This document shows positions 21,046 to 37,511 of a stretch of 64,000 nucleotides of DNA, one piece after another. Below the pieces are notes generated by a model. It was not told the DNA's origin. It did no database searches and was given only the letters and a program-made list of their open reading frames with translations. The DNA is from Candidatus Microgenomates bacterium (lineage in GTDB: Bacteria > Patescibacteriota > Microgenomatia > UBA8517 > JACQJR01). The translations under genes and the position numbers were made by a program. How positions within the stretch are numbered: the first letter of the stretch is position 1; each line of letters opens with the position of its first letter. Location: NCBI GenBank assembly GCA_016204995.1, contig JACQJR010000001.1, forward strand, positions 241,132 through 305,131, written 5' to 3'.

Positions 21046-22564
21046 CCAATAAAATATGAAGCATGGCTATATAAGATAACAAACCTACTATTACTAAAAT
21101 AATTACTCCCAGCCAATTTAAGGTAATAAGATTACCAGTTATAAACATCACCAAAGCCATGCCAATACTAGCTGTCAAAGGATAGCCTACGCTTTCCAAT
21201 AAAACTACATTGACAAAACGTTTACTCCACACAATTGCCACAATTGAACTTATTCCCACTAACATAAAACCTAATGCCGCCCCATTAATAGAATAGCGGC
21301 TAGCCAGCAAAGGAACAAAAATCCATGTTAAAACAGTCCACATCACCATCAAGCGAAATGTAACGGCAATTTTACCGATACTGTTAAGCATATTAGTTAA
21401 AGGCGTGGAGACCGCTGCAAAAGCCGAGTTAACACTGATGAAAGCCAAAGCCAAAAGAGCCGGCTGCCATTGGGCGTATTTGGGAATTAAATGGGTTAAA
21501 GGTTCAGAAACAAACACCAAACCGACCAAAGCCGGAAAGACCAGCAAACAGATAAAGAAAAGTGAACGCGAGACCGCATTGGCTAGCTCTCTTTTCTCAT
21601 GCTGCATCCGGGAAAAAGCCGGAAAAGTCACTTTAATCACCTGGTCCATAAAAAATCGTAGCGGTGCTTGCGCCCATTTTTGGGCCCAACCCAAAAGACC
21701 GATACCGGCCGGGCCGATAATACCGCCTAAGACTAAGGTCATACCATCATCCTTGACCATCGCCAGCATAGTATTAGCCTGATAAGGCAAACCAAATTTT
21801 AATAATCCCCCTAAATATTGCCTATTCCATAAAAATCCCGGCTGCCAGGGCCGCAAAATATAAATTATCACTACTCCCACTATGCCCCGAGCTACCACCG
21901 CCACTGTAAAACTAGTAATACCAAAGCCCTGCCAGGCTAAAATTACGGCTATACTGTAAAAAACAATCGTCTCGGCAATTTGGGGAATAATTAATTTGTT
22001 AAATAACAATTCCCGTTCCAGTAAGACCGAGGGAATAGTTTTTAAAGAGGATAAAAAGAGAGAAAATGTTAAAGCCCACAGCAAGTATACCGAAGGCTGG
22101 GAAAGTTTATACCAGTTCTGAAAAAGGGGAGTTAAAGAAAAAATTAGAATAATTACTCCTAATACCAATATCTGTTGTACTGTAAAAACAGATTTTAATT
22201 CGCGCTTATCCAGCCGGTCTTTTTTTTGAATTAAAGCTGCGGCCAAGCCGATATCAGAAAAATAGGCAAAAAAGTTAATGACTGCTGAAACCAAAAAGAA
22301 AACTCCAAATTGAGTTGGAGTTAAAAAAATTGTTAGTAAAAATGTAGCCAGTAACGCTATTACCTGAAGAATAAAAGTCCGGCCGGTTAAAGCCACTACT
22401 CCCTTAACTGCCCGTCTCTTAACAGTCTCCAGAGATATTTCCTCGGTAGGACCCGTGCTGAGCCCAGCCGAAGCATCCAGATGTTCGGCAGCAGTAATCC
22501 CCACCCCTAAATTGTAGCAGAAATCCGCATTACACCATACCTTTAATTTGTTAAAATTATTCAT
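20990..22564 (-). CDS. wzx: Wzx-like oligosaccharide flippase (MOP superfamily polysaccharide biosynthesis protein)
   Basis: 524 aa, 12-14 TM; 'TIFLTPTQFGVFFLVSAVINFFAYFSDIGLAAALIQKKD' typical Wzx/RfbX N-terminal region; first ~45 aa (GC-richer) may be 5' UTR rather than coding. Confidence 0.7.
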   Translation of the reverse strand: MNNFNKLKVWCNADFCYNLGVGITAAEHLDASAGLSTGPTEEISLETVKRRAVKGVVALTGRTFILQVIALLATFLLTIFLTPTQFGVFFLVSAVINFFAYFSDIGLAAALIQKKDRLDKRELKSVFTVQQILVLGVIILIFSLTPLFQNWYKLSQPSVYLLWALTFSLFLSSLKTIPSVLLERELLFNKLIIPQIAETIVFYSIAVILAWQGFGITSFTVAVVARGIVGVVIIYILRPWQPGFLWNRQYLGGLLKFGLPYQANTMLAMVKDDGMTLVLGGIIGPAGIGLLGWAQKWAQAPLRFFMDQVIKVTFPAFSRMQHEKRELANAVSRSLFFICLLVFPALVGLVFVSEPLTHLIPKYAQWQPALLALAFISVNSAFAAVSTPLTNMLNSIGKIAVTFRLMVMWTVLTWIFVPLLASRYSINGAALGFMLVGISSIVAIVWSKRFVNVVLLESVGYPLTASIGMALVMFITGNLITLNWLGVIILVIVGLLSYIAMLHILLGGQIWRDFTTIYATFKKK

Positions 22565-22980
22565 TGAGAAGAAAAATAAAGAAACATTCTAGAAAAATAT
22601 TATTTCCAGGAAAACCTATAATCAAGGAATGGTTGCATAGTCACAAAAGGACATTTTACCTTAACACAGAACAGCTTGATAGAATTTCTTTTTCAATTCT
22701 AAAAGATGAAAATGAGAAAATAAAAGAAATTCAAAATGTTTCTTATGAAATCAATATAAATGGAAAATGGGTTAGGATAGTAAGATATGATGATCATAGT
22801 GGAACTGGATCACTTCACAGACATACAAAATTTTCATTTAGTAGCCTTAAAGAAATAATAGAATCACTTCCCTGGATCAAAGGAGACAAAAATCAACAAT
22901 TAACACAGGCTTGTAATGATATTAAGGAAAATTATGAGGAGTTCAAAAATGAATTTACAAAAAATTCCGGGCTTGACTAG
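22564..22980 (+). CDS. hypothetical protein (defence-island ORF, no ATG start)
   Basis: 138-aa ORF begins with TTG and contains no internal Met; possible TTG start at ~22633 after AAGGA; no recognisable domain ('RIVRYDDHSGTGSLHRH'). Confidence 0.3.
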   Translation: MRRKIKKHSRKILFPGKPIIKEWLHSHKRTFYLNTEQLDRISFSILKDENEKIKEIQNVSYEININGKWVRIVRYDDHSGTGSLHRHTKFSFSSLKEIIESLPWIKGDKNQQLTQACNDIKENYEEFKNEFTKNSGLD

Positions 22981-23030
22981 TATTAATCAAAAATTTACAG
23001 TATATTTGTATTAAGGGTGTAAAATAAGAC

Positions 23031-23285
23031 ATGGGTACAAAAACACAAACCGCTAAAAATATTGAATTGACACATAAACTGATCGAGTATCTATTGCGTG
23101 GAAAAAACGTACCAGACCTACCGGAGGATGTATCTTTTGTTCCATTCTCAAAGACAGATAAGAAACTTAATAAAGAAAATGACAAATTACTTAAATCTAT
23201 CTATCAAGAAGGAAAACGCGTTGCAAAAGCAGAGGAATCAAAAACAAGCAAGGGTTCTTGGGAAATAACTCCAGTTAATTTCTAA
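23031..23285 (+). CDS. hypothetical small charged protein
   Basis: 84-aa ORF, Lys/Glu-rich, no motif recognised; co-directional with 22564..22980. Confidence 0.3.
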   Translation: MGTKTQTAKNIELTHKLIEYLLRGKNVPDLPEDVSFVPFSKTDKKLNKENDKLLKSIYQEGKRVAKAEESKTSKGSWEITPVNF

Positions 23286-23543
23286 TAACCGTTAAGCTGG
23301 ATGAAAAAACAGCCAATTTTACATCCATTAATTTACATTACCCCGAATACTACCCGAAGTCAAGAGAACTAAAATGAGGTTCTGCAGACATTTAATTTCT
23401 TCTCAAAATATTCCAACTAAGACAAGTGATATATCAGAAGACCAAATAAAACAAGGACTCTTAAAATCCGCCGCCAACACTCTCTCGGCCGCACAATTTG
23501 TTGTAAGTTTCTAAACATAAAAATAGGTAATATTTAGATATAT

Positions 23544-24638
23544 TTACTTAAAAATCTTTATTAAAGTTTCTGCTAAATTAGTTTTTCTACCATCTCTTGG
23601 AAAAATTTCCCTAATCGTATTTGGGAAGAACCCTTCAACTGCGTTCCAAATTTTAACACCGTTATTATCAATTTCACTCAAAGCTCCTGGTAAATATGGA
23701 TATTTATGTGTGATCCTAGCCTGAAAGAGTTCAGGAGATTCAGGAGAAATAATATACAATTTTAATTTTTTACTATCTATTGCATTAACAAGACATTCAT
23801 TTATATGCTCATCACGAAATCCATAACCAACCAACAATAACCTTACCTCTTCTTGATTTAAAGATTTCTTAAATTCTTGGAAATAAAAATTTAGTAAGGG
23901 CTCTTTTTCAATATCGGACTTTTTATTCTTGCCTATTATCATTCTGCTAGTACCATCACTTGATACCCAACCTAAAGAACCATGTAACTTCATGTACAAA
24001 ATATTGTGCTGCTTCTTAACACTCTCTAATTCTGTGACAAGTTCAACTTCTGAAAATCTATTAAGCTCATCGTGGTTAGGTAATATATGTGGATCTCTGT
24101 TTGAGTATGATATTTTGTACCCGCCACATTGCTTTAATCTCTCTTGAGAAAACCATTTAGTTTTTGAAATAAATGGTTGCCAGCCAAATTTTTGTTCAAA
24201 AAATAAATCTTGGTTGAGAGTGAAACAAACTCCTACCCGCTCTTCATTGAAGAAAAACAAACTCAAAAAATCCTTAAGTTCTTCCTGGTTAACCCCCCAG
24301 GAATCAATGATTTGATTTTCTCCTTGTCCTATTATTAGTTGCATCGAAATGTATGTTTCGATAATTATCTTTTCAAATTTAGTTTTATCATCAGATGAAT
24401 ATCCGTCACCTAATATTATTTCGCTAAATATATTCTCAAAATCAAACTTTTTCTCCGAATTTTTGAATAATTCTTTAGCTTTGGTTAACTGATTAAGATC
24501 AGGATTATTAAAAATTTTTACCCACATCTCCCTAGCAAGGAATCCACCAAAATTAGCTGTAAAACCGGCACCGAAAAGTAGCATATTTTTTCTATAGTTT
24601 AAATCCATGCAAGTTTTATTTACGCTGCAACCTTCCAT
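23544..24638 (-). CDS. SIR2-like (SIR2_2 family) protein, putative NAD+-consuming defence effector
   Basis: 'MLLFGAGFTANFGG' (GAGxS-like N-terminus), 'FTLNQDLFFE' (TTNYD-like, Asn), 'KLHGSLGW' (HGS His), 'LLLVGYGFRDEHI' – the four hallmark blocks of PF13289; likely start at internal Met 24608. Confidence 0.6.
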   Translation of the reverse strand: MEGCSVNKTCMDLNYRKNMLLFGAGFTANFGGFLAREMWVKIFNNPDLNQLTKAKELFKNSEKKFDFENIFSEIILGDGYSSDDKTKFEKIIIETYISMQLIIGQGENQIIDSWGVNQEELKDFLSLFFFNEERVGVCFTLNQDLFFEQKFGWQPFISKTKWFSQERLKQCGGYKISYSNRDPHILPNHDELNRFSEVELVTELESVKKQHNILYMKLHGSLGWVSSDGTSRMIIGKNKKSDIEKEPLLNFYFQEFKKSLNQEEVRLLLVGYGFRDEHINECLVNAIDSKKLKLYIISPESPELFQARITHKYPYLPGALSEIDNNGVKIWNAVEGFFPNTIREIFPRDGRKTNLAETLIKIFK

Positions 24639-24967
24639 GCTACAGAATACTATTAAATAGTATCAGAAATCTATCTCTGAGATATGATAGTTCTAAAGAG
24701 ATTTATGCTGCTTGAAATAACACTTTTGGCTTGGATTACCTTAGTTTTGAAATATTCAACCAAGAAGTTGGAATTAAATTGAAAGAAACTACCAACTCTT
24801 TTTGCTTTCCCTCCAAACATATCTATAACCAGGAGGTGCTGGTGGCTTTGATGGTTTAGGCACACTAGGTGACCGAGGAGGCCTGGGTGGTCTAGGAGCT
24901 GTCGGAGCTTTTGGCGGTCGAGGACCCTATATGGGATTGGAATAATCTTTAGCCAGCTTCCATACCA

Positions 24968-25213
24968 TTAGTAGCTACCTCCTCCATCAAGTTCTTGACT
25001 AGGTGAAACTGAACCAGAAACATTTGAAGCAGTCCCAGCTGAAACAGAGATAATTCCGCCTACAAATCCTTGCTGTTTTTCAGTAGGGAGGTCTGTATGT
25101 TTCTCACAAACATTGTTTAAACACGACCAGATACCTAAAGTTTGAATAATTAGACTACCACACAAGGTACAAACTAAAACCCCAGATTTTGTTCTGTTAG
25201 TCCAATTAAGCAT
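24968..25213 (-). CDS. hypothetical small membrane protein
   Basis: 81 aa, one TM helix 'GVLVCTLCGSLIIQTLGIWSCL', Gly/Ser-rich tail. Confidence 0.25.
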   Translation of the reverse strand: MLNWTNRTKSGVLVCTLCGSLIIQTLGIWSCLNNVCEKHTDLPTEKQQGFVGGIISVSAGTASNVSGSVSPSQELDGGGSY

Positions 25214-25386
25214 AAAATTATTAAAAAGATGCCAAGTAAAAACTTAGGCTAGTATTACATTAGCATTATAATACAATCGGCACTAAAAAACTAGATAGGT
25301 AAATACTAATGACTTCAATTATTTTGATTCTTACCTTCAGCTACGTTCAGAAGAAATCTGACGTAGGCAGTAGAGTTTATAAACTA

Positions 25387-25411
25387 ACTGTTCTCCTCTA
25401 AGAGAAGAACA
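25387..25411 (-). terminator. putative hairpin terminator downstream of R-M operon
   Basis: CTGTTCTCCTC-taa-GAGAAGAACAG (11-bp stem, 1 mismatch) ~20 nt after REase stop; flanking U-tract weak. Confidence 0.3.
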
Positions 25412-25429
25412 GTAAAACAAAAAATATTT

Positions 25430-25948
25430 TTATGGAATCGGGAGTCCTAATTTCTGTAGGGGTAAATAATTAAAATAATATTGACAACCTACATCGATTA
25501 TATAATTAAGGGTATCTTTATATTGTGGTTTTCTGAACCAATCACTAAGAATATAAATATACTCAACCTCTATATTAAGTGAGGCCATTAACTTTTTATA
25601 TTGTTTCTTTTTGAAATCACAAGTTTGTAACTTCTCATCCACCGAGCCACCCACATTTTGAATCTTTAGTTCAATAACAAACAATGTATTATTAACGATC
25701 ACATATATTGCTTCATCGGGTAAAAGTTTTTTAGAAATTATCTTTGTATAATTAACCCCTTTAGCAGCTAAAAAATTATAAAGAGAATGTTTTTTATAAC
25801 TTCTTGCCACCTCCTCATCTTGATAGTAGATAACCTTATCTTTCACTGAATATCCTTCAGTCTTGCTAAGTAAGGAAATGATATCTTTTTCTTTCTCAAA
25901 ATTAAGACCAGTTAAGGTATTTCCTCCTCCTTTTCCACCTTTAATCAT
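25430..25948 (-). CDS. Type II restriction endonuclease (PD-(D/E)xK fold)
   Basis: 172 aa; 'LPDEAIYVIVNNTLFVIELK' = PD...ExK catalytic motif; start ATG overlaps stop of upstream methyltransferase (ATGA). Confidence 0.5.
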   Translation of the reverse strand: MIKGGKGGGNTLTGLNFEKEKDIISLLSKTEGYSVKDKVIYYQDEEVARSYKKHSLYNFLAAKGVNYTKIISKKLLPDEAIYVIVNNTLFVIELKIQNVGGSVDEKLQTCDFKKKQYKKLMASLNIEVEYIYILSDWFRKPQYKDTLNYIIDVGCQYYFNYLPLQKLGLPIP

Positions 25949-26811
25949 ATAGATAATCCCTGATTTATTATAAATTCTTTTCCTTGTTTTACCGGATCAT
26001 ACATTGAAAGCTGTTTATTTTTCAAGTTTTTCTCCAATTCTTCAAATCTTTTTATTGATAAATCTAGATATTTTCTTTCGGTATCAATTCCAATAAAGTT
26101 CCGATCCAAAAGATAAGCTGCAATTCCAGTTGTTGAACTTCCAGTAAATGGATCAACTATTAAATCACTTTTATTTGTACTCGCAAGAATAATTCTTTTA
26201 AGTAAATCTTCTGGCTTTTGCGTTGGATGTTTGCCAAATTTTTTTTCTATGGGTTTAGGAGTTCCTATCGCCCAAACTGAACGCATTTGTAGGCCTGGTT
26301 TTTTTAATTGATCCCCTAACCAATTGCCATTTTTCATTAAATTATAATTAAAGACGTGCTTTGTTTCTTTGTCTTTACGTGCCCATATCAATGTCTCATG
26401 GCTAGCAGTAAAATAACGACAACTTAAATTAGGGGAGGCATTTGGCTTGAACCAAGCAATATCATTGAGTATATGGTATCCTAGCGACTGCAAAGCATGT
26501 CCACACTGATAAATCGAATGATAAGTGCCACTAACCCAAAGAGTACCATGGGGTTTCAAAACTCTCCGGCACGCCTCCATCCATTTATAATGGAAATCAT
26601 AATCATCTTTGAATCCCTTACTCTTATCCCAATCTCCTTTATTAACACTAACCATCCGTCCTGCATGAACAGTTATGCCTCCGTTTGAAAGATTATAAGG
26701 GGGATCGGCAAAAATCATATCCACTGAACTCTCGGGAAACTCAGCCAACAAATCTAGACAATTAGCCTGATAAAGTTTAAATTTAGGCTTTTCGTAGTAT
26801 GATTTTATCAT
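25945..26811 (-). CDS. DNA methyltransferase, beta-class N6-adenine/N4-cytosine (PF01555-like)
   Basis: 288 aa; motif IV 'IFADPPYNL' precedes motif I 'VDPFTGSSTTGIAA' (beta permutation); DPPY suggests m6A. Confidence 0.85.
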   Translation of the reverse strand: MIKSYYEKPKFKLYQANCLDLLAEFPESSVDMIFADPPYNLSNGGITVHAGRMVSVNKGDWDKSKGFKDDYDFHYKWMEACRRVLKPHGTLWVSGTYHSIYQCGHALQSLGYHILNDIAWFKPNASPNLSCRYFTASHETLIWARKDKETKHVFNYNLMKNGNWLGDQLKKPGLQMRSVWAIGTPKPIEKKFGKHPTQKPEDLLKRIILASTNKSDLIVDPFTGSSTTGIAAYLLDRNFIGIDTERKYLDLSIKRFEELEKNLKNKQLSMYDPVKQGKEFIINQGLSI

Positions 26812-26944
26812 ATTTTATGAAAAAGTGTTATGAACTAGCATAAGTATTTTACCACAAATCTTGTAATATTTTTATGCAAATTTTTAAAAAAATTTTAGCC
26901 ACGAATTAAGTATAAATTAGCATCCCTTTGATATACATTTTTAT

Positions 26945-27016
26945 AGTTGACAGTTATTCCAGTCAACCTCAAAATAGCAGACGCGCGATTAAACTGATAA
27001 AAGGAGGTGAGAATAT
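26945..27016 (+). promoter_or_regulatory. putative sigma70-like promoter (TTGACA-N17-CAAAAT) within inverted repeat AGTTGAC/GTCAAC, followed by strong SD AAGGAGGTG
   Basis: TTGACA at 26947-26952, inverted repeat arm GTCAAC at 26962-26967, SD at 27002-27010. Confidence 0.35.
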
Positions 27017-27124
27017 ATGCCATACAGAAGTTCTAAAACGGGTAAATATGTTAAAAAATCATACGCACAAAAGCATCCAACAGTTACTGAAAGAGAGAGA
27101 AATAAAAAGAATAATAGGCATTGA
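27017..27124 (+). CDS. small basic peptide (35 aa) with canonical SD
   Basis: ATG 8 nt after AAGGAGGTG; 'MPYRSSKTGKYVKKSYAQKHPTVTERERNKKNNRH'; below the 60-aa cut-off of the ORF track. Confidence 0.3.
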   Translation: MPYRSSKTGKYVKKSYAQKHPTVTERERNKKNNRH

Positions 27125-27183
27125 ATCGTCTAGTGGACAAGCAGGCAATGGGTGGACTAAAGTGGAATTAGACTGCATCTTAT

Positions 27184-27855
27184 ATGCCTCAATTTAAATT
27201 ATCTCCCTCAGACTTCGCCTACCTTTATGAGGATTGTAAATTTTGCTATGTTTTAAAAGTTAAAAGCGGCGTTGCTTTACCCAGTATGCCGATGCCGAGA
27301 GTTTTCTCCGCCATAAATACCAGACTTCAAGGTAATCTTATCGGGAAAAGCCTTAAAAGCTTATCTAAAAATCTACCGGAGGGAGAAGTTATATCACAGG
27401 AAGGCTTTGTGGAATCAGTTGTTATTCCCGGCACATCAGTTTACATCAAAGGGAAATATGATTTGCTGGTTAAAAATCCTGACGGCACGCATATGGTGGT
27501 GGATTTAAAAATCAGCCAGCCGGGAGAAGATAAAATAGAAAAATATAAAACGCAGTTGGCTGCTTATAAATATGCCTTTGAAAATCCAAAAAACGGCCAG
27601 CCGATTAAAATTACCAAACTTGGGCTTTTGATTTTTTATCCAGATCAAGTCTCATTCCAAAATGATACTGCCATACTTCATTTTCCTCCTGTTTGGCTGG
27701 AAATTCCCATTGATGATGAATACTTTTTAACATTTATTAAAGCTATTGATGAACTTCTGGCTGGTCCTGAACCAGGAGTCAGCGTAACTTGCAGATGGTG
27801 TGTTTATAGAAAATATTTTGAGCCCCAAGCTCTTGTGGAAGATATTCCTTTTTAG
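27184..27855 (+). CDS. Cas4/RecB-like PD-(D/E)XK nuclease domain protein with 2+2 Cys
   Basis: 223 aa; 'GKYDLLV' (motif II), 'VVDLKIS' (motif III), 'TQLAAYKYA' (QhxxY), N-terminal 'CKFC' and C-terminal 'CRWC' possible Fe-S ligands. Confidence 0.5.
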   Translation: MPQFKLSPSDFAYLYEDCKFCYVLKVKSGVALPSMPMPRVFSAINTRLQGNLIGKSLKSLSKNLPEGEVISQEGFVESVVIPGTSVYIKGKYDLLVKNPDGTHMVVDLKISQPGEDKIEKYKTQLAAYKYAFENPKNGQPIKITKLGLLIFYPDQVSFQNDTAILHFPPVWLEIPIDDEYFLTFIKAIDELLAGPEPGVSVTCRWCVYRKYFEPQALVEDIPF

Positions 27856-27859
27856 GAAT

Positions 27860-29317
27860 TTATTGAATCTTCGCCACTATGGATTTGATTTCAGTGGAAA
27901 GAATATCTTTCGGAATACCGCCTAAATCTTCATAGAAAACTTTGAGGTTGAAATCGTGATATAACAATTGCAGGGCGTCGGAATTATTTAAAATATAAGC
28001 AGCTTGGCGGGAACTACCTCCCCAATCGCCAGAAATTTTCGGGTAACTGGGATCATTTACGAAATAAACTATGGCACCCTTGGGTAAAGTTGGATAAGTA
28101 GTTAAAACGTTATTAATTAATTTCTCGGCAATCCTACCACGAACTGCCGCCGGATAAGTTCGATCACCCAATTTAATTGACGTCACTGACAACACCACCA
28201 AAGAAGTAATTAAAATCACTTTCAATAAATTCATTTTATTAGAGAAAATTAGATAACCTATCACTCCCCAAAAAGCCGGCAGGGCTGGTGCTAAATAGTA
28301 AGTTGATTTATGAAGTGGAAGTAAAATTACCGGCGAGATAGCTATGGGAAACCAAAATAGTAGAAAGATAAATTTTTTGTCTAGTAAAGCTGATTTATTT
28401 TTTCGCCACAAGTTAATTATAAAAATAATTATTAATCCGATTGATAAGAAAAATGCCGGGAAAATAATTTTAAAATAATCTCCCCAAAATTTCATTAAGT
28501 TTGGATTAAGCGATAACTTGGGGCCAATAAAATCAATCAGCATTTCCGGCATACCCGCCGCCCACACAGTGTACCAGGCAAAGGAATTAATTATTTTTGG
28601 CAGAGAAAATACTGCCTGGTATTGAGCATCTTTTTGTAAAAGACCAATTTTGACAAAATCCAGATAGATAAAAATTAACAGTATCAGGAAAAAAGGCCAG
28701 ACCATTTTGATATTTTTTCCTTTAATCCAAACCATTCCCAGCATCAAGAAAGGCGTGGTAATTGCCAACTCATGCGAGGCTAGTGATAGTAGAAAAACAA
28801 CTAGCGATAAAATCCACCATTTTATTTTTCCCTCTTGGAGATATTGCCACCAGCAAATTAGAGTTAAGAGCATGAACATGGTGACTCCCAAAGCTTGAAT
28901 TCCACCGGCCAAATAATAAAGCAGTGCTACATTCGCAGCAGTTATCCTAAAGAAAAAAGCTGTGAATAGCGATAAAAACTTTTTGGCAAAAATTTTCTGC
29001 ATTAATGTATAAACCAGTACTGTATTAATTAAATGAATGGATATTGACAGTAGGCGAAATGGTAAATGATTAAGACCGAATAATTGATAATAAATATTAA
29101 ATAATCCTTCCCGGAAAACAGGCCGGTAAAAGGCATAGCCTCGCTCGGAAAAACTGGGAAAGCCAAATAAATTGATAAAACTTTCTAGCTTGCCATCAGT
29201 TAAACTGGCTTTAAAATGAAAAAAATCATCCTGGGAAAAATAAACTCCCAAAACGGGAGAATAAATCCACAAAACAAAAAGGCAGACTAAAATAAGAGGC
29301 CACCACCTACTTAACAT
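27860..29317 (-). CDS. polytopic membrane protein, putative GT-C fold glycosyltransferase
   Basis: 485 aa; 'FSQDDFFHF...GYAFYRPV' acidic first loop; many TM helices. Confidence 0.45.
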   Translation of the reverse strand: MLSRWWPLILVCLFVLWIYSPVLGVYFSQDDFFHFKASLTDGKLESFINLFGFPSFSERGYAFYRPVFREGLFNIYYQLFGLNHLPFRLLSISIHLINTVLVYTLMQKIFAKKFLSLFTAFFFRITAANVALLYYLAGGIQALGVTMFMLLTLICWWQYLQEGKIKWWILSLVVFLLSLASHELAITTPFLMLGMVWIKGKNIKMVWPFFLILLIFIYLDFVKIGLLQKDAQYQAVFSLPKIINSFAWYTVWAAGMPEMLIDFIGPKLSLNPNLMKFWGDYFKIIFPAFFLSIGLIIIFIINLWRKNKSALLDKKFIFLLFWFPIAISPVILLPLHKSTYYLAPALPAFWGVIGYLIFSNKMNLLKVILITSLVVLSVTSIKLGDRTYPAAVRGRIAEKLINNVLTTYPTLPKGAIVYFVNDPSYPKISGDWGGSSRQAAYILNNSDALQLLYHDFNLKVFYEDLGGIPKDILSTEIKSIVAKIQ

Positions 29318-31058
29318 GAGAAAGTTTAAAACTGTGTTTTCTTTTCCACAAGATACGAAGCAAGATAAACCAAGAAATTAAGGAAATCATATTACCCACA
29401 GTGCGAATAGGAGTATTAGTCAGTCTCACTTCCAGTTTATGATCTCCCTGGGGAACCAATAAACTAATTCTAGCTAAATCATCCTTAGGCAGAACTTTAA
29501 TTTCTGTCTTTTTGCCATCTATCCAGGCTTTCCAATTAGGAAAGTTGAAAATATTAACAACCACTGTCGCATTATCAGAATTAACCTTTATGTTAGTTTT
29601 TAACCAGTTCGTACCTTCTTTTGTTTGACTAAATTCAGCCTTACCACTGTCTATCTCCAATGGTTCTTTACGAGCTGACTGTGGGGCAATTCTAGCACCC
29701 TTTGGCAAGTAATCATAAATACCGGCTGTTTGCTGCAGTCTCCAAGCCTCTCCGGAAAATTTTTCCTGATCTGTGACCGGCCCGGTTCTTTCTACTCTAA
29801 AAAAGTTGAAATTAAAAATAATTAAAAATATTAGTAACGCAGAAATAATTGCTTTGCCTATCACACGTAAAGGAGCTAGTAATACGACAAGGGCTCCGGC
29901 TAAAAAGCTTAAGGAAAAAATAGTCAAAGTTAAAAAGCGCCAGGGGAATTGGACTATAGACAAAAATGGAAAGGTTAACCAAATCGGCGTAGATCGACTA
30001 TGAGCCATAAAGGCTGCTCCAATACCCACCACCAGCAGAAAACCAACCAAAGCTACCAAATTAAGGTTAAATTTCTTTTTCTTTTTAAAAATGATGCTCG
30101 CTATAGTGAGCACTACAATTACCAAAGCCAGTATCCAATGAACATGGCCGACGGGAAAAGCCATTCCGTCTCCATCCATCCAGACCGAAGCCCCATAGCC
30201 CCAAAAACGAGAGAAGAATAATTGCTTAAAAGTGGCAAAATGGGCAATATACTCATAATATCCTTGAGTCAAAGTCTCCACATGTACTAAATTTTTCTCA
30301 AAAAAGACCGGCAAGGTAAAAAAGGCTGCCAGTCCTATTCCCCAAATTCCCCCTATAGCCAGCATGGGTACTTTATTAAATTTACCTGTGCGCCATAACC
30401 ACCATAGAGACCAGACCGCCAGGACCGGCGTAAATATCAGAACCATGATGTTATGTGACAACAATAATGCTGCCCAAGCAAGAGCTAAAATCATCACCCA
30501 TTTCAAAATTGAAGACGGGTGATCCCGCTTAGCGGGAGCAGGACTCGTCGAAACAATTAATTTATAAGTGCTCCATAAAAGTAAAGGAAACCAAACTAAA
30601 GCCCAACTCTCATTCATAGCTCCCCTAACAAAAACATCTAGGGCATGATATGGCGCCCAAATATAAAAAGTCGCCGAGACTACCCCACCAAAACGTCCCC
30701 AAAATTCTTTGGCCAGTAAATACATCGTAAAACCAGAAAGCATTATGCTTAGTAAAAAGATAATTTTGGCAACCTCGGTAAAATGAAAACCGACTAGTCT
30801 AAATACTTGTCCAACAAGATATGGCAATGGAGGATAATAGTTAAATAGGGGGAAACCGTAGCCATATCCCATATCCGGCACCCAACGGCAAGGGATTTGT
30901 AAGTCTTTAAAACATTTCTCAAGTTGTAGTTGTCTCATCATCTGCAAATCATCATGCATGGGAAAATATCCCGGCAATAATAAATCGCGTGAGGCCAAAA
31001 GACTAATAAAAATTAGCAGTATAGGTACCCAAAATTTCGTCAACCACTTAACTATCAT
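29307..31058 (-). CDS. PTPS-related (PF10131-like) polytopic membrane protein, putative GT-C
   Basis: 583 aa; 'PMHDDLQMMRQLQLEKC' HDxxxH/R N-terminal loop; paralogue of 60472..62103; carries 12-aa in-frame mini GC element. Confidence 0.5.
   Translation of the reverse strand: MIVKWLTKFWVPILLIFISLLASRDLLLPGYFPMHDDLQMMRQLQLEKCFKDLQIPCRWVPDMGYGYGFPLFNYYPPLPYLVGQVFRLVGFHFTEVAKIIFLLSIMLSGFTMYLLAKEFWGRFGGVVSATFYIWAPYHALDVFVRGAMNESWALVWFPLLLWSTYKLIVSTSPAPAKRDHPSSILKWVMILALAWAALLLSHNIMVLIFTPVLAVWSLWWLWRTGKFNKVPMLAIGGIWGIGLAAFFTLPVFFEKNLVHVETLTQGYYEYIAHFATFKQLFFSRFWGYGASVWMDGDGMAFPVGHVHWILALVIVVLTIASIIFKKKKKFNLNLVALVGFLLVVGIGAAFMAHSRSTPIWLTFPFLSIVQFPWRFLTLTIFSLSFLAGALVVLLAPLRVIGKAIISALLIFLIIFNFNFFRVERTGPVTDQEKFSGEAWRLQQTAGIYDYLPKGARIAPQSARKEPLEIDSGKAEFSQTKEGTNWLKTNIKVNSDNATVVVNIFNFPNWKAWIDGKKTEIKVLPKDDLARISLLVPQGDHKLEVRLTNTPIRTVGNMISLISWFILLRILWKRKHSFKLSHVK
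30514..30549. repeat. GC-rich palindromic element, short form C' (in-frame within PTPS-related gene)
   Basis: GACGGGTG-atCCCGCTtAGCGGGag-caGGACtCGTCG; termini as in A/B around a perfect 6+6 palindrome; encodes 'STSPAPAKRDHPSS' absent from paralogue 60472..62103. Confidence 0.5.
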
Positions 31059-32298
31059 ATGAATTCTTTCTTAAAAGTTTGATAACTAAATATAAAGAGG
31101 CAGCGGCAAATATACTTCTGGCTATACTTTTAAGCAGGAAAATATCTGTATACTTACCCAGAAATTCCGACAGAGATGGCGCTTTGGCTAGATCAGGCCA
31201 AACAGGAGAAAAAAGACCATAAGATAGAGATGATTCAAACATTAAGGTAATAAAAAGCCAGCATAACGATAGTACTACAACCAATTCTATAACTTTGAAT
31301 TTACTTTTTACCATTATGTAAATGAGCAAAGGTGTCACCCAGATAAACCATTGTGGATGATAATGAGTCACAGAAAATATTAAAAGCAGTATGGCTAAAA
31401 AATAGGCAGGAATCAACTCCTTGTTTTGTTGGTAATAGGAGTAGAAGTAGATAACAAAAAGGATCAATATAAAAGGCAGTATTCCCTCTGCGCCGGAGAC
31501 AGGCCAATTCATAAATAGCATTTTTTGACTCTTAGGCGCAAAAAGAACCATCTCTCTGAAAGCAGGAGAACCTATAAAGGGCAAGGCAAATAGCACAAAG
31601 GGCAAAACCCCAATGGCTATTTTTTTTAATTTATCTGCTAGAGTTGTTCCTAGAGAAAAAGCTACTGGTAGAACCAATAGTAGAGGAAAAGTTTTATAAG
31701 CCGCTCCTATGCCCAATGCCAAAAGACTTAGGTTTCCCTTCCCTTTCTTGATCAAATATAAAGCTAAAACCACAAAAAAAGTTGGTAAAATATCCAATTG
31801 ACCAATCATAAAGCTAGTATAAAGCGTAATAGGGTTAAACATCCATAAAGTAAAAGCGATTTTTTTATTTCTCTCTTGGGTAAATAATCCTGCCAGTAAA
31901 AATGCTAAAGCTATGTCAAAAAAGAGGTAAGGAAATTTAAAAATAAAAAGATGCCAGTAAAGACCATTAAAATCATACATTTTGTCCACCCCTTGCCAGA
32001 GCATGGGAATAAAGTTAGAGTCAGTAATTGGGACCACCAGCCATCTAAAAATCCCTAGGGTAAAGTAGGTTAATGGGGGATAAATAAAAATGTCACCAAT
32101 GCCAAAATTTTTTACTAAGGGATGATCCGAAGGTAAATTAGCAAGATGTTCATAAATATTTGACCTGCCCTCATAGGCAAAAAAATAAGCTGTGAAAGAA
32201 TGTCCCAGTAAATCGGGATGGAAAGTAATCGGCATTAAAACTAAACGCAGTACTACGCCAATTACTAGAATGGTTTTTGTAAAACTATTAATCTTCAT
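31048..32298 (-). CDS. polytopic membrane protein, DUF2029/GT87-like
   Basis: 416 aa; 'HPDLLGHSFTAYFFAYEG'; paralogue of 4931..6184. Confidence 0.45.
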   Translation of the reverse strand: MKINSFTKTILVIGVVLRLVLMPITFHPDLLGHSFTAYFFAYEGRSNIYEHLANLPSDHPLVKNFGIGDIFIYPPLTYFTLGIFRWLVVPITDSNFIPMLWQGVDKMYDFNGLYWHLFIFKFPYLFFDIALAFLLAGLFTQERNKKIAFTLWMFNPITLYTSFMIGQLDILPTFFVVLALYLIKKGKGNLSLLALGIGAAYKTFPLLLVLPVAFSLGTTLADKLKKIAIGVLPFVLFALPFIGSPAFREMVLFAPKSQKMLFMNWPVSGAEGILPFILILFVIYFYSYYQQNKELIPAYFLAILLLIFSVTHYHPQWFIWVTPLLIYIMVKSKFKVIELVVVLSLCWLFITLMFESSLSYGLFSPVWPDLAKAPSLSEFLGKYTDIFLLKSIARSIFAAASLYLVIKLLRKNSYDS

Positions 32299-33898
32299 TT
32301 TGGGAATTTAATGCTCTTTCAGTCACTTCAAAAAGATATAAATAATCTCTTTCCCCATAAAATAAGTACTGATGTGTATCTGTTCTGGCCCGTTTAGCCT
32401 TAGGATAAGATGATACAACCGCAAGACCTAGTTTCTCTGCTTTTTTGGCAGCTTGAGTCGCGTCTATTTCAAATTTCTCTAACATCCTTGAGCTATTTGC
32501 TACTAAATAAACCTTATCCCCTGCTTTTTTGGCATTTTTTAGCTGTTCCGGTACTTCGGTAATACTTATTCCCACTCCGATAACGACAATCTGGGGAAAT
32601 TTTTCCAGGTAAATCTGCAAACCATCCGGCAAAGTACCGAAGTAACCCTCTGTGCCAATAATTATTTTTTTACCTGGTTCAATCGGCTTACTTTTAATGA
32701 AATCGGCAATTTCGCGAATTCCTGTCCCCGCCGTCCATTCCTCTAAATATCCAGATCTTTCGCTTTGAGGCAGGGGAGCTGTTTCTGGATTCGTTACCAG
32801 CCTATAATTAATCCACAAAGCTTGACCTATAAATATCAACAGGGCAGCCAGCGATAAAAACTTAGCTATTTTATTTTTAACTAAAAATGGGATTGCGGTC
32901 AAGATAGCCAGAAACGGTAAAGAAAAAAACATATAGCGAGCGGTAAATACCTTGGCAAATTCTGCTTGAACTACAATTGGCACAGCCGCCCATAAAACCA
33001 CCAAGAGAGTTTTCCTTAAATTGTTTTTTAAACCAATCAGAATGCCAAACAAAACCCCGATTAAGAAAATGTTAGGACCTAGTATCCATAACCACTCTTT
33101 AGCTCGATCAATATGGGGCATAAACGGATCAAGGGAATTAGTCCATAAATGGCTTAATGGTAAAACATAATCCTGATTACGAGTCGCTATCAAATTAAAA
33201 TTAGGCCCGAGTCTCAAGATGTTGTAAATACCATAGGCTAGTCCATAAATAACTATAAATAGCAATATTATTTTAATTAATTGATATAATCTTTGGCTAT
33301 TTTTTTTAGGCCACTTGGCTAAAAGTAAACTAACAGGAAGTAATAAACTAAAAAATAAAGCCGGTGATTTGGTAATTAAAGCTCCACCAAGAGCAAAACC
33401 AGCAAGCATTGCAAAATCTAGCCTTAAAGTCCTAACCGTTAAAATACCGAAAAACAGCGTCCAAACACCAAACATAGCCAGCATGGAGTCAACGAGCGCC
33501 ATTCGATCAAAAAGTACCGTAAAGGGGGAAATAGCATAAATTAAAGAGGCAACTAACGCAGTTTTGCGTGAACGGAAAAGATACAAAGTTAGAGCAAAAA
33601 TTCCTATTAAAGTAGCAAATCCTGCGGCGACTGAAACCATTCTTCCTGCTACTAAAGGATCTGAAAACAACTTAAAAAGGGGAATAATTGACCACATAAA
33701 AAGCGGTTGTTTTCCATCCGAGAGTGGCAGGAAACGCAAAGTCGGCTCGTTCCTCATCACTTGCGCCCATCTGATATAAATTGCCTCATCAACAAAAACC
33801 GGTAAAATTGTTAGATTAACAATGCGCAGGAAAAAATAAAGAAGGATGATAGCGCTCCCGGCTAAAATTACAAATTTGTATTTGAAAAATATACTCAC
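32288..33898 (-). CDS. GT-C fold membrane glycosyltransferase (ArnT/GT83-like)
   Basis: 536 aa; 'LPVFVDEAIYIRWAQVM' DE-loop, N-terminal TM bundle plus C-terminal soluble domain. Confidence 0.55.
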   Translation of the reverse strand: MSIFFKYKFVILAGSAIILLYFFLRIVNLTILPVFVDEAIYIRWAQVMRNEPTLRFLPLSDGKQPLFMWSIIPLFKLFSDPLVAGRMVSVAAGFATLIGIFALTLYLFRSRKTALVASLIYAISPFTVLFDRMALVDSMLAMFGVWTLFFGILTVRTLRLDFAMLAGFALGGALITKSPALFFSLLLPVSLLLAKWPKKNSQRLYQLIKIILLFIVIYGLAYGIYNILRLGPNFNLIATRNQDYVLPLSHLWTNSLDPFMPHIDRAKEWLWILGPNIFLIGVLFGILIGLKNNLRKTLLVVLWAAVPIVVQAEFAKVFTARYMFFSLPFLAILTAIPFLVKNKIAKFLSLAALLIFIGQALWINYRLVTNPETAPLPQSERSGYLEEWTAGTGIREIADFIKSKPIEPGKKIIIGTEGYFGTLPDGLQIYLEKFPQIVVIGVGISITEVPEQLKNAKKAGDKVYLVANSSRMLEKFEIDATQAAKKAEKLGLAVVSSYPKAKRARTDTHQYLFYGERDYLYLFEVTERALNSQNED

Positions 33899-35238
33899 TC
33901 TTTTAATATTAATATTTTGTCACGGTCTGCTGCAAGAACCTGATATCTATTTTTGGCGATTTTAGCTCCATCTAACCTTTCCTGTTTAGTAATTAATAAA
34001 GATTGCTCCTTCTGGTTAAAAATTTCTGGTATGGCTGTGCTCCAAATCTGCTGCACATTTTTCTGACTGTAGAAAACCGCCACTGGATAAAAATCTCCAT
34101 CAATATAAAACCTGTATGGATAATTATGCGCCTTACTAGAAAGAATTGCTTCATCGGAAACAAAAGCCGGTATATCTACAAATTGATACCAGGCTTGTCT
34201 AATTTGCATAAAGGAAAAATAAATTCCCACCGATAAAACCATGAGTGACACCAGCCATTTATTTTTAATCACCTTTTCTATTAAAACATAAGCAAGACCG
34301 AAAAATACCAAAGTTAAAATTGGATAAAGGGGTATTAAGTGCCAAATCTGGCCTCTCTCTGAAAAAAGAAAAGGCATAAAAAATATCATGGCAAAAACCG
34401 TTAAGATTAAAAATCTTTTTTGTAAAGTCAGAATTCCTAAAATTAATCCTAAAATTCCCGGCCAGAACCATTTCCCGACCCCGCTATGCAGATATTCCTT
34501 AATTAGCAAAAAATTCTGTAGGATCGGCTCCCCTACTTTCACTCCCGGCAAACCGATTTTAAAGTAGTAATTTAACATATCAGGACTTGCTCCCAGCTGT
34601 AAGACAAACCACAGAATAAACAATGATAAAGGAAGAATAAAAGGCCAAATAAAATCCCATATTTTAAATCTTTTAGCTCGCCAAAAAATAATTAATAAAA
34701 TTGGTGGGATGGTAAATGGCACGACTGTTTTAGTCAGTAATAACAAGGCCAAACTGATAGAAAATGGCCATAGGTATAATTTTTGCTTGGCGGCTTTAAT
34801 GGCTAATAATATGGTTAATAAAAAGAAAAAGGTTAAGAGAATATCTAGATTACCCGATCGGGCCCGATATAAAAACCAAAAGGTTGAGGGTAAAGCTAAG
34901 GCCGAGGCAAAACCTACTGTCCGGTTAAAAAGCTCCTTACTAAGAAAATATAAAACATAAACGCTGGCCAAGCCTAATAAAGCAGAAGGAAACCTAGCCC
35001 AAAACTCGCTAACTCCAAAAATCTTAAAAATAATGGCCATTAGCCAAAAACCAGCCGGTGGATGATCTACGTAAGAGCCACCGTTCCAGGTTAAATGAAA
35101 AATATCACCACTATTTAAAATATTTCGGGCAATATCCGCATACCAAGCCTCGTCCCAACTAACCAAAGAAGACTCTCCTAATTTATAGAAAAAAAGCGGA
35201 GCCAGAAATGTAAGTAAAATTAGGGGAATAAATTTCAC
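33895..35238 (-). CDS. GT-C fold membrane glycosyltransferase, GT39/PMT_2 (ArnT-like)
   Basis: 447 aa; 'SLVSWDEAWYADIARNILNSGD...DHPPAGFW' textbook ArnT/PMT_2 N-terminus. Confidence 0.7.
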   Translation of the reverse strand: MKFIPLILLTFLAPLFFYKLGESSLVSWDEAWYADIARNILNSGDIFHLTWNGGSYVDHPPAGFWLMAIIFKIFGVSEFWARFPSALLGLASVYVLYFLSKELFNRTVGFASALALPSTFWFLYRARSGNLDILLTFFFLLTILLAIKAAKQKLYLWPFSISLALLLLTKTVVPFTIPPILLIIFWRAKRFKIWDFIWPFILPLSLFILWFVLQLGASPDMLNYYFKIGLPGVKVGEPILQNFLLIKEYLHSGVGKWFWPGILGLILGILTLQKRFLILTVFAMIFFMPFLFSERGQIWHLIPLYPILTLVFFGLAYVLIEKVIKNKWLVSLMVLSVGIYFSFMQIRQAWYQFVDIPAFVSDEAILSSKAHNYPYRFYIDGDFYPVAVFYSQKNVQQIWSTAIPEIFNQKEQSLLITKQERLDGAKIAKNRYQVLAADRDKILILKE

Positions 35239-35250
35239 TTTCTAATTGTA

Positions 35251-35994
35251 TCAATATTTGCCCGTTAAATCATTCCATCTAATTCTTACCATATCACGGA
35301 TGGCATCAAGCGAATCTTTGATTAACTGCACCCGCTCTGTTCCCACATAATGCCATATAACCTGCACTTCGGCAATTTTAAAACCCGCCTTTTTGGCCAA
35401 AAAAAGTGTTTCTATGTCAAAACCGGCATGAACCGCCGCTCCTGTTGCTCGCATCTTCTGCCATGACTGCTGCAGTTTAGGAAAAATTGCCTGGCGCGAT
35501 TTAATATTAAAAGCCTTAAAGCCACATTGTGTATCTAAAAATGGTAAGCCTAAAATAATGTTACGAAGTTGGGCAAAACCCCAGGCAGCCAGTCTTCGCA
35601 AGATGGGAGCACCCTGTCGGCCATGCCTTGAACCGATTACAATATCATAACCTTCCTGAAATTTAGCTAACAATTTTTCCAGTTGATGCAAAGGGGTAGC
35701 CTGATCCATATCAGTGAACAATGCTATTTCCCCTTTGGCAGCCAATAATCCAGATATCACTGTAAGAGCTTTACCGCCGTGAGGGTTTTCAATTAATTGA
35801 TAACCCCTTTTCCCGCGCATCCAACCTTTGATTAACTCTTTAGTTTTATCCGTTGAGCCATCATCAACTATTAACACTTCAAATAGGTAATTTACTCCTT
35901 TCAAATAATCATTCACTTCATCTAATACTCCCTTTTTGAGATTTTTTTCTTCGTTGTAAGCGGGAATAATAATAGATAGGTATAAATTTTTCAT
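35251..35994 (-). CDS. GT2 polyprenol-phosphate sugar synthase (DPM1/ArnC-like), soluble
   Basis: 247 aa; 'LSIIIPAYNEEKNL...VLIVDDGSTDKT...FTDMDQATP'. Confidence 0.75.
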   Translation of the reverse strand: MKNLYLSIIIPAYNEEKNLKKGVLDEVNDYLKGVNYLFEVLIVDDGSTDKTKELIKGWMRGKRGYQLIENPHGGKALTVISGLLAAKGEIALFTDMDQATPLHQLEKLLAKFQEGYDIVIGSRHGRQGAPILRRLAAWGFAQLRNIILGLPFLDTQCGFKAFNIKSRQAIFPKLQQSWQKMRATGAAVHAGFDIETLFLAKKAGFKIAEVQVIWHYVGTERVQLIKDSLDAIRDMVRIRWNDLTGKY

Positions 35995-37511
35995 TTTATT
36001 CTTTCTCTTCTCTGAATAGTAATACCACCGAATTTAACTTCGGTGAGCACTTTACCTATCCCTTTTTGTCGAAAGAGCCATGCCGCGAGCCTCTCCGGAT
36101 GCGGCGGATCTTCTTCATATAAAGTATAAAGTAGAGGTATCTTTTCTGCTACTGGAGTTTGGTGATATCTGGTAGTTCCCCGCCATAAAAATAAATAATC
36201 ATAGGCGTGGGGTATAACTGGAGGTACATAAACATCCAGACCAAAATTACGACCGGCGGTATCTTGATAAACCCAATCCACAGCTAATTTTTGATTCCCC
36301 AAAACTATACTGTCTGGATTGTTAATGTTGCTATTTAAGTGTCTCCCTAAAATAGAACCATTATCTTGTAAAAATAGCCATAGAAATAACCCTAAAATTA
36401 GTTTACCGATCTGCGTAGAATTAATTGAAGTAATAATCACCGAAAAAATCAAAACAAATATTAAATAGTAACCTGTAAAATAATAACTGTATATAATACC
36501 ATTATTTCCCCGGAAGAAAAGCAAACCAATAAGAGGCAAAATTAAAAGTGTTAAAAGAAGAACAAATTTATCATTACTTAAAAAACGCTTAATATTGGCA
36601 AGCAAAATTACCAATATTAAAAAACTGAAAATCTGAATTAATTTGGAATTGGTGGGAAAAATAAGTGGACCAAAAGTATCAAAGTAAAGAGGGAAACGTC
36701 TTTCTAGTAACCAAGCGGTCGTTTGATTAAAACTTTTTTGCTCAAATAAAAACTGACTAATATTATGATAAAGTAATCCTCCATGACGGAAATCAAAAAC
36801 AATCTGAGGTAAGAGAGTTATTAAAAAAAGTGAAACTGAAATTAAAAGTATTTTTTTATTGGGTAACTTTCGCCGTTGTCTGCTTCGCAAGGCGAGCCAG
36901 AGGGAAAAAATTAACACTGCCGGCAGGTAAAAGACTTCGGCAGCGCTGCCAAATTGCAAAGCCAAACCCAACATTAAGGCAATCAAAATCCAAACTACCG
37001 TTTGGCCCTTTAATACCAAAAACATTCCTAAAACCAAAAGCATGCTGATTAAAAGCATCGGAGTGGGATTTGACAGCCAACGCGAAGCATATACTAATTG
37101 AAAAGAAAAAGCAGAAATCACCGCCGCTACTATTCCTGTCACGCGGCCCCCCACCATTACTCCTATTACATAAATCAGTAGGGTAGCAGCAACTGTAGTC
37201 AAAGACAAAAATACTGATGGCCAAACCGGATTGCCGTTACCCAAGAGATAAAACGGGGCAATTAACCAGTAATACCAGGGTCCGCGAAAAATACCCTCTA
37301 TTCCAGTAGTTGGACCAATCAAAGAAATTTTACCTTGATGCCAAAGCTCCCAAATAATCTTAGCATCCCTTCCTTGATCATAGTAAAAACCAAGTAATTC
37401 ATCAATTCTCCATACTCTCAGTAAAAAAGCTGCGATTAAAATCACGACCAAAAACAAACTAATTATCTTTTTATTAAACATCTTATTTTCTCCCTTCAAT
37501 CCACTCTTCAA
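35991..37511 (-). CDS. GT-C fold membrane glycosyltransferase ('DQGRDA' family)
   Basis: 506 aa; 'FYYDQGRDAKIIWELWHQGKISLIGPTTGIEGIFRGPWYYWLIAPFYLL'. Confidence 0.5.
   Translation of the reverse strand: MKSGLKGENKMFNKKIISLFLVVILIAAFLLRVWRIDELLGFYYDQGRDAKIIWELWHQGKISLIGPTTGIEGIFRGPWYYWLIAPFYLLGNGNPVWPSVFLSLTTVAATLLIYVIGVMVGGRVTGIVAAVISAFSFQLVYASRWLSNPTPMLLISMLLVLGMFLVLKGQTVVWILIALMLGLALQFGSAAEVFYLPAVLIFSLWLALRSRQRRKLPNKKILLISVSLFLITLLPQIVFDFRHGGLLYHNISQFLFEQKSFNQTTAWLLERRFPLYFDTFGPLIFPTNSKLIQIFSFLILVILLANIKRFLSNDKFVLLLTLLILPLIGLLFFRGNNGIIYSYYFTGYYLIFVLIFSVIITSINSTQIGKLILGLFLWLFLQDNGSILGRHLNSNINNPDSIVLGNQKLAVDWVYQDTAGRNFGLDVYVPPVIPHAYDYLFLWRGTTRYHQTPVAEKIPLLYTLYEEDPPHPERLAAWLFRQKGIGKVLTEVKFGGITIQRRERIK

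Follow-up and report, generated by a model that had tools for sequence, protein, structure and literature searches.

A compact SIR2_2 gene is carried by a Candidatus Microgenomates bacterium in a stretch of 64,000 nucleotides of contig JACQJR010000001.1 (positions 241,132 to 305,131; hereafter the window, meaning the whole stretch that was analysed). The gene lies on the minus strand within a short variable islet; it is already annotated as encoding a SIR2 family protein, and SIR2 defence effectors are a known kind. Our analyses point to a predicted NAD+ hydrolase (NADase) that has all its catalytic residues and a single domain, and that belongs to a widespread family with no conserved partner gene. 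The gene and its landmarks are listed below, with residues numbered as in the full 364-amino acid (aa) open reading frame (ORF).

23544..24608, minus strand: SIR2_2 (SIRim-type) gene of 354 aa, counted from M11 as the likely true start
24564..24572, minus strand: codons of G23-A24-G25, the Rossmann dinucleotide-binding loop, inside the conserved block LLTGAGFTANFGGFLAxEMW
24207..24221, minus strand: codons of T140-L141-N142-Q143-D144, with the predicted catalytic Asn, from the profile alignment to N226 of Staphylococcus aureus Sir2 (SaSir2)
24003..24188, minus strand: codons of residues 151-212, the insertion that separates the catalytic Asn from the His and varies more, with more indels, than any other
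23976..23990, minus strand: codons of K217-L218-H219-G220-S221, with the predicted catalytic His, aligned with SaSir2 H287
23811..23831, minus strand: codons of V270-G271-Y272-G273-F274-R275-D276, Y272 being aligned with SaSir2 Y352

The minus-strand ORF spans 23544..24638 when its 364 aa are counted from the first ATG. The NCBI entry for the protein (P0001, "SIR2 family protein") is 100% identical and 354 aa long, beginning at M11 (MDLNYRKN...), and the homologs all begin at the methionine equivalent to it. As the homologs and the NCBI call agree on this position, the likely coding sequence is 23544..24608, and the comparison places the true start probably at 24608.

The assignment to SIR2_2, although a prediction, is far above chance, since matches to Pfam, PADLOC, PDB profiles and Foldseek all bear it out. 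The Pfam profile (PF13289) matches residues 139-303 with 35.2 bits, above the gathering cutoff of 24.5 (E = 1.6e-8), and 22 SIR2 or Aga_SIR2 models of PADLOC match the C-terminal part only, the best of them at 2e-14 and the Aga_SIR2 models aligning just residues 204-314. With the NCBIfam equivalog SIR2_antiphage (NF042942), the protein reaches 40.5 bits where the cutoff is 500, and residues 253-311 alone are aligned. SIR2_2 is the sole domain detected; in an AlphaFold2 model made from the family alignment, the fold spans the whole chain of 354-364 aa as one compact domain (predicted local distance difference test, pLDDT, 86; predicted template modelling score, pTM, 0.88). The first-pass annotation had described a standalone SIR2_2-like protein with four characteristic sequence blocks and no fused sensor domain, and this description holds: the blocks are found at residues 23-25 (GAG), 140-144 (TLNQD), 217-221 (KLHGS) and 270-276 (VGYGFRD), all conserved in an alignment of 57 homologs, and the profile and structure comparisons that it called for both return SIR2 enzymes.

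The nearest structures are those of anti-phage proteins. Foldseek gave 36 matches in the PDB at E <= 1e-3, every one a chain of SIR2-HerA/Nezha entries (8sxx, 8sub, 8su9, 8suw, 8j4u, 8uae, 8w9l, 8wld and 8yhx), with probability 1.0, TM scores of ~0.5 and identity of ~17%, whereas human SIRT2 was matched with a probability of at most 0.44 and a TM score of ~0.3; the modelled fold is nearer to the anti-phage Sir2 proteins than to the canonical sirtuins. A search of the PDB with the family profile found three solved SIR2-HerA Sir2 chains (E = 2.5e-14 to 6e-7), all three also matched by Foldseek. The model had no significant match among the viral structures of BFVD.

These comparisons also bear on whether the gene serves defence at all. 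The SIR2 superfamily holds deacylases and ADP-ribosyltransferases, and the vertebrate SIR2_2-type proteins FAM118A and FAM118B are, on their own, very weak NADases (PMC12700824); the protein could then be an NAD-dependent deacylase or an ADP-ribosyltransferase, or a gene kept by mobile elements for their maintenance or for host manipulation, the last being in line with its frequent carriage as prophage or integrase cargo, where it may serve the element. On the other hand, the canonical sirtuin profile (PF02146) has no match at E <= 1, the structural match to SIRT2 falls far behind those to the defence proteins, and the ORF translation contains no paired CxxC zinc module, its only cysteines being C4, C10, C138, C171 and C282. 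Furthermore, all bacterial anti-phage SIR2 proteins identified by DefenseFinder fall in one of two clades, named SIRim (10.1101/2024.09.18.613514), and by its SIR2_2 profile and closest structures our protein would belong there too. We regard a role outside defence as quite improbable.

The catalytic centre can be read by comparison with SaSir2, in which N226 and H287 form the catalytic dyad, NADase activity is lost on point mutation of H287, and the nicotinamide ribose is held by H287, T225, E152 and Y352 (PMC11514289). In the profile alignments, FTLNQDL stands opposite FTTNYDL and KLHGS opposite KIHGS or KLHGS, and the N-terminal GAG..GG..W block is aligned with that of Escherichia coli Sir2 (8j4u); residue counting through the 8yhx alignment equates N142 with N226, H219 with H287 and Y272 with Y352. 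Both the profile support and the alignment of the catalytic Asn and His, on which the first-pass annotation had made its assignment depend, are thus in place. Among the 57 homologs, G23 and A24 are invariant and G25 is present in at least 90%; L141, N142, Q143 and D144, K217, H219, G220 and S221, and G271, Y272 and F274 are likewise invariant. The protein is predicted to be a catalytically intact enzyme of the SIR2_2/SIRim type.

Conservation is distributed very unevenly along the chain. It is low, with frequent indels, in two insertions of the cap (residues 76-135 and 151-212); the latter, lying between the catalytic Asn and His, has a mean conservation of 0.31 and 24% gaps against 0.7-0.86 in the core formed by the NAD-binding and catalytic segments, the spacing from Asn to His varies between 49 and 76 residues across the family, and the pLDDT of the model is lower there (64-78). 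Residues 151-212 are a candidate recognition or regulatory surface.

The family is large and its members are similarly compact. A word-indexed search returned 593 homologs, almost all of them 320-360 aa long and nearly all with a precomputed PF13289 match, and an exhaustive HMMER search of 1.84 billion cluster representatives gave 1,464, 1,056 and 252 clusters (at 50% identity) with E <= 1e-3, 1e-10 and 1e-30, respectively, nearly all again of 320-360 aa and matched end to end. The family has conserved motifs of its own (NFGGFLAxEMW, FDFE and IW..GYFPY..FP). Genome matches place it across the Candidate Phyla Radiation (CPR, Patescibacteria), in Jacksonbacteria, Levyibacteriota, Staskawiczbacteria, Saccharibacteria, Nomurabacteria, Gracilibacteria and others; in further bacteria, namely Nitrospira, Desulfobaccales, Syntrophales, Planctomycetota, Scalindua, Acidobacteriota and Elusimicrobia; and in archaea (Methanoperedens and anaerobic methanotrophic archaea, ANME). 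A metagenome scan with the single protein found nothing and one with an alignment of the close clade, the relatives at 62-68% identity, found only relatives of at most 44% identity, so that this clade remains small. In five loci (L026, L030, L038, L046 and L067), the homolog is split into two consecutive ORFs, in one example of 168 and 125 aa; either assembly errors or frameshifts that turned a potentially toxic gene into a pseudogene may explain the split.

Partner genes were sought by calling and clustering the ORFs in 171 homologous loci, 133 of them nonredundant. No neighbour cluster is conserved across the 171 loci, and no Pfam family occurs more than five times among 140 sampled proximal genes, those within two positions of the SIR2 gene. 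The proximal genes are mostly serine recombinases, restriction-modification (R-M) components (Eco57I, N6_Mtase, ResIII, DpnII and Type_ISP_C), AbiEii, TOTE primase, cpYpsA-SLOG and YhcG nuclease, with R-M genes the most common functional class; 140 distal genes, at least six positions away, are housekeeping genes such as those for isocitrate dehydrogenase, tRNA synthetases, chaperonin and MraW. A recombinase, integrase or terminase is present in 25 of the 83 nonredundant loci of at least 8 kb. Terminase large or small subunits (phrog_38 and others) occur in eight CPR loci and a LexA-like repressor in six, and on four viral contigs of IMG/VR a SIR2-like gene is followed, ~1-2 kb on, by a serine recombinase. 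With neighbours so variable and unrelated, and with recombinases and terminases among them, the family studied here is best described as cargo that travels by itself in defence islands and integrative elements.

Two kinds of neighbour were weighed as partners and set aside. The most frequent, a large serine recombinase (Resolvase, Recombinase and Zn_ribbon_recom domains) found in 29 loci, lies within two genes of the SIR2 gene in ~14 of them and is usually convergent; its distance and orientation vary, and it is a standard large serine integrase that marks element borders. Large genes that in individual lineages overlap the SIR2 gene by 4-8 nt are mutually unrelated and partly plainly metabolic, their products including a Bro-N/trypsin protein, a BcrAD activase, a beta-lactamase fold protein, an SF1 helicase-nuclease, an OLD-type AAA_15/21-TOPRIM ATPase, a KAP NTPase and AbiEii.

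The surroundings of some homologs have features of their own. In Jacksonbacteria (L001-L009 and L093-L095), the SIR2 homolog overlaps by 8 nt the gene for a 1,116-aa protein with Bro-N and trypsin-like protease domains, and immediately upstream of it there are Rhs/YD-repeat polymorphic-toxin cassettes accompanied by DUF7674 immunity-like genes. In ten nonredundant loci (L011, L017, L020, L021, L049, L069, L073, L081, L104 and L161), a gene for a RecG-like helicase is found within 8 kb of the homolog, and insertions may recur at a hotspot beside recG in CPR genomes.

In the window, the gene shares its islet with the following features.

22564..27855, mixed strands: variable islet of ~5.3 kb with big intergenic gaps and slightly lower GC content
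22564..22980, plus strand: DUF7718 gene, 138 aa, convergent with the SIR2 gene
23031..23285, plus strand: DUF5647 gene, 84 aa, convergent with the SIR2 gene; 24 bits against a Pfam cutoff of 27
24968..25213, minus strand: gene for an 81-aa Cys-rich small protein, 329 nt upstream of the SIR2 gene and on the same strand
25387..25413, minus strand: strong terminator-like hairpin (12-bp stem) that immediately follows the gene of the putative restriction enzyme
25430..26811, minus strand: type II R-M pair, two genes with a 4-nt overlap
25430..25948, minus strand: putative endonuclease, 172 aa, unannotated, with a weak PDDEXK_11 match
25945..26811, minus strand: N6/N4 DNA methyltransferase, CcrM/HinfI-like, 288 aa (N6_N4_Mtase, 1.6e-58; MTase_II, 1.3e-99)
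27184..27855, plus strand: Cas4-like PD-(D/E)XK nuclease with N- and C-terminal Cys pairs, divergent from the methyltransferase

The order of the islet is thus DUF7718, DUF5647, SIR2, the 81-aa gene, the hairpin, the endonuclease/methyltransferase pair and the divergent Cas4-like nuclease. It breaks a long minus-strand array of envelope-glycosylation genes, which is tightly packed (1-22564 and 27860-41978) and also holds genes of the dTDP-rhamnose pathway; with 13 PMT_2 and nine GT2 matches in the window, the array looks like a large gene cluster for envelope glycosylation in a CPR bacterium. At the islet borders we found no tRNA, no integrase and no convincing att-like direct or flanking repeats. 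A promoter scan did no better than on shuffled sequence (24 found against 21.9 expected). The 64-aa ORF at 24671..24865 has no family match and is not conserved in the related locus L091, and we treated it as spurious. HerA, pAgo, TIR, SLOG and STAND are all absent from the PADLOC and Pfam matches listed for the window's 55 proteins (the top 25 families).

The first-pass annotation had looked for a sensor in the small neighbouring genes or in the Cas4-like nuclease, and most of this did not survive the comparison of loci that it had itself recommended. DUF7718 and DUF5647 occur near none of the ~170 homologs and may form a separate two-gene module. The Cas4-like nuclease, which has no CRISPR-Cas context, recurs in just one other locus of 171. 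The 81-aa gene was found in one other close lineage and also in a place that has no SIR2 gene.

More can be said of the R-M genes, for which a different kind of dependence can be considered. The SIR2 protein might be restrained by an adjacent restriction enzyme, or sense its failure, and be triggered by phage anti-restriction, in the manner of PrrC, the effector that guards the R-M system EcoprrI. In the window, a type II R-M pair is found a short way upstream of the gene, R-M genes lead the functional classes among proximal neighbours, and in two diverged relatives of the close clade (L090, 1037-5190; L185, 3-1621) the end of a Type ISP R-M gene overlaps the SIR2 start by 4 nt. The Type ISP C-termini of these two are 61% identical and the SIR2 proteins 66%, and the similar divergence of both genes suggests that they have been co-inherited as an operon. 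However, R-M systems are common in all defence islands, where adjacency is expected anyway, and most loci have no adjacent R-M genes; in the window, the R-M system is of a different type, and the terminator-like hairpin between the units suggests that the SIR2 gene is not co-transcribed with the R-M operon. The 172-aa protein is probably the cognate type II endonuclease of the methyltransferase, it has no homolog near other family members, and the pair is an independent neighbouring defence system of the same islet. The analogy with PrrC itself draws on general knowledge, and we consider such guarding very improbable.

A closer candidate for a partner is the small Cys-rich gene, and for this the close clade, with six readable contexts, is informative (L181-L183 come from the same strain as the window and carry an identical islet). 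The homologs lie as follows.

L091, 366-608; L184, 321-563; L180, 1421-1669: homologs of the small Cys-rich gene

In L091 and L184, an 80-aa homolog of the 81-aa protein (54% and 48% identity, respectively) is encoded directly upstream of SIR2. Four cysteines (C15, C18, C31 and C36) are conserved in the small protein, which ends in a Ser/Gly-rich acidic tail, and a profile search of the PDB gave just nonsignificant matches to zinc modules. On sequence grounds, the ORF at 24968..25213 is a real gene: its DNA diverges in a codon-like manner, and the flanking spacer is not conserved. These observations would fit a clade-specific two-component module in which the 81-aa zinc-ribbon-like protein, the Cas4-like nuclease or both act as regulator, antitoxin-like inhibitor or sensor. 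In the window as in L091/L184, the small gene precedes SIR2 and is read from the same strand, and between L184 and L091 the small protein has diverged faster than SIR2 (62% against 92% identity), as would an interface under conflict. For the nuclease, a PDDEXK_1 gene (4019-4774) follows the SIR2 end (4014) at a 4-nt gap in L089, and its product aligns end to end with the Cas4-like nuclease of the window (25% identity, E = 4e-8); genes for an SLFN-type helicase, DUF6602 and AAA_15/21 lie nearby. Yet the small gene is missing from L089, L090 and L185 within the close clade and was not found in ~165 more distant loci. The 81-aa protein is very rare in the databases, with two clusters only, and a 67% homolog (P0261) is found where SIR2 is absent, upstream of a 141-aa gene and a DpnI-like gene. 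The Cas4-like gene of the window, moreover, lies 2.5 kb from SIR2, on the opposite strand and behind the R-M operon. A two-component module of this kind is in our view unlikely. The 81-aa protein is possibly a clade-specific accessory or regulator, not a family-wide partner, and might serve toxic defence effectors as a small controlling or antitoxin-like protein; local linkages of SIR2 exist, but they vary between sub-lineages.

Intact catalytic residues, a single domain, the lack of a conserved neighbour and residence in defence and mobile contexts together lead us to a single-gene reading: the protein would be an infection-triggered, abortive-infection NAD+ hydrolase whose activation is intrinsic, to which we give a probability of roughly 55%. 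The proposal of the first-pass annotation that the gene encodes an abortive-infection NADase effector is plausible in the light of the fold, the catalytic Asn and His, the anti-phage relatives and the conflict context, all of it judged from homology. In an uninfected cell, the enzyme would be autoinhibited, as the characterised anti-phage Sir2 NADases all are: they are inactive until infection and controlled by auxiliary components (PMC11514289). The infection cue would act on the protein itself, by binding to the fast-evolving cap insertions (76-135 and 151-212) or by shifting the oligomeric state; the active site would then open, cleavage of NAD+ would yield ADP-ribose and nicotinamide, and growth of the infected cell would come to a halt. 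The linked genes, that is, the 81-aa protein, the R-M pair and the Cas4-like nuclease, would be lineage-specific add-ons or independent systems and no obligate sensors.

Several points weigh against this single-gene reading. SaSir2 T225, which contacts the ribose, is replaced by a leucine (L141) in our protein, and the identity to characterised NADases is low, ~17%. Tight coupling to a neighbour is seen in some lineages, with the Type ISP R-M gene (L090 and L185), the Bro-N/trypsin gene (Jacksonbacteria) and the small Cys-rich gene (the window), and a partner may be encoded elsewhere in the genome, of which the window spans 64 kb. The literature searched holds no biochemical or phage-resistance data for any member of the family. 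To our knowledge, a self-sufficient sensor-effector of 350 aa would be unprecedented in prokaryotes. The characterised compact SIR2_2 effectors (~350-430 aa) all need a partner, be it HerA (PMC11514289), KomB, pAgo or ThsB. A bolder form of the idea, extended to the whole family of 330-350 aa, would see in it a minimal self-contained SIR2 immune module that senses through its own hypervariable cap or through self-assembly and has no partner, with a sub-variant in the close clade, the Type ISP-SIR2 operons, guarding the restriction enzyme next to it much as PrrC does; we think this possible but rather doubtful.

If a self-contained module it is, no smaller NADase combining sensor and effector would be known, and prokaryotes would have in it a counterpart of the standalone eukaryotic FAM118 (SIRal) proteins; if an unlinked partner is needed, the finding shrinks to one more SIR2 defence gene. 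The anti-phage SIR2 enzymes known from earlier studies owe their activation to a sensor fused to them or to a partner of their own (HerA, pAgo, signals made by ThsB, KomB or the C-terminal domains of DSR), and a broad family that combines the full catalytic machinery with no conserved partner, and that is carried by integrative elements and CPR prophages, poses a testable question: how does a bare SIR2 NADase stay off, and how is it turned on? It also adds a candidate abortive-infection effector to CPR genomes, and its members, small and tractable, would suit structural studies of how SIR2 enzymes are autoinhibited. A literature search combining Patescibacteria, SIR2 and defence systems returned nothing; in the literature searched, the compact partner-less family and its frequent carriage beside serine integrases in CPR prophages are undescribed, and PADLOC v2 and NCBIfam have no full-length model for it.

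Among known systems, SIR2-HerA/Nezha Sir2 (8sxx, 8sub, 8j4u, 8yhx and 8w9l) is the best match in both structure and profile. The two share the GAG loop, the Asn motif (T/L)N-x-D, K(L/I)HGS, GYGF-x-D-x-HIN and the positions of the Asn/His dyad; the SIR2-HerA proteins are 381-428 aa long against 354 aa here. Unlike them, our protein misses the NF042942 cutoff, is ~17% identical and has the motifs and cap insertions of its own family, and HerA is neither among the listed matches of the window nor conserved in the 171 homologous loci. KomC of the Kongming system is likewise a small PF13289 effector without a fused sensor. Its catalytic His is needed for NAD+ depletion, and it requires KomB (HAM1) and KomA (adenosine deaminase) from the same operon, being inactive without KomB; in contrast, neither the neighbours in the window nor the top 25 families of homolog neighbours include domains of the KomA or KomB type.

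DSR1/DSR2, ThsA and the SIR2-APAZ protein of SPARSA follow the same SIR2_2/SIRim logic of NAD+ depletion, and the neighbourhoods of SIRim genes are 12-fold enriched in defence systems (10.1101/2024.09.18.613514). ThsA of Thoeris has a fused SLOG or Macro domain and works with ThsB (TIR), and SPARSA joins SIR2-APAZ to a short pAgo; our protein has a single domain and no APAZ region, and TIR, SLOG and pAgo are absent from the listed matches of the window. DSR1/DSR2, of roughly 1,000 aa, carry a large C-terminal sensor domain, whereas the SIR2 fold fills the 354-364 aa of our protein. Canonical sirtuin deacylases have a PF02146 match and a Cys4 zinc module, neither of which is present here, and the match to SIRT2 is weak. 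A parallel in organisation comes from vertebrates: FAM118A and FAM118B, the latter of ~350 aa, are likewise standalone SIR2_2-type proteins without a fused sensor. They differ in being eukaryotic and weak NADases when alone, and no FAM118 chain is among the best 50 PDB matches listed. FAM118B is regulated by head-to-tail self-assembly into filaments (PMC12700824), and by analogy such self-assembly is a plausible model for how a partner-less enzyme may be controlled.

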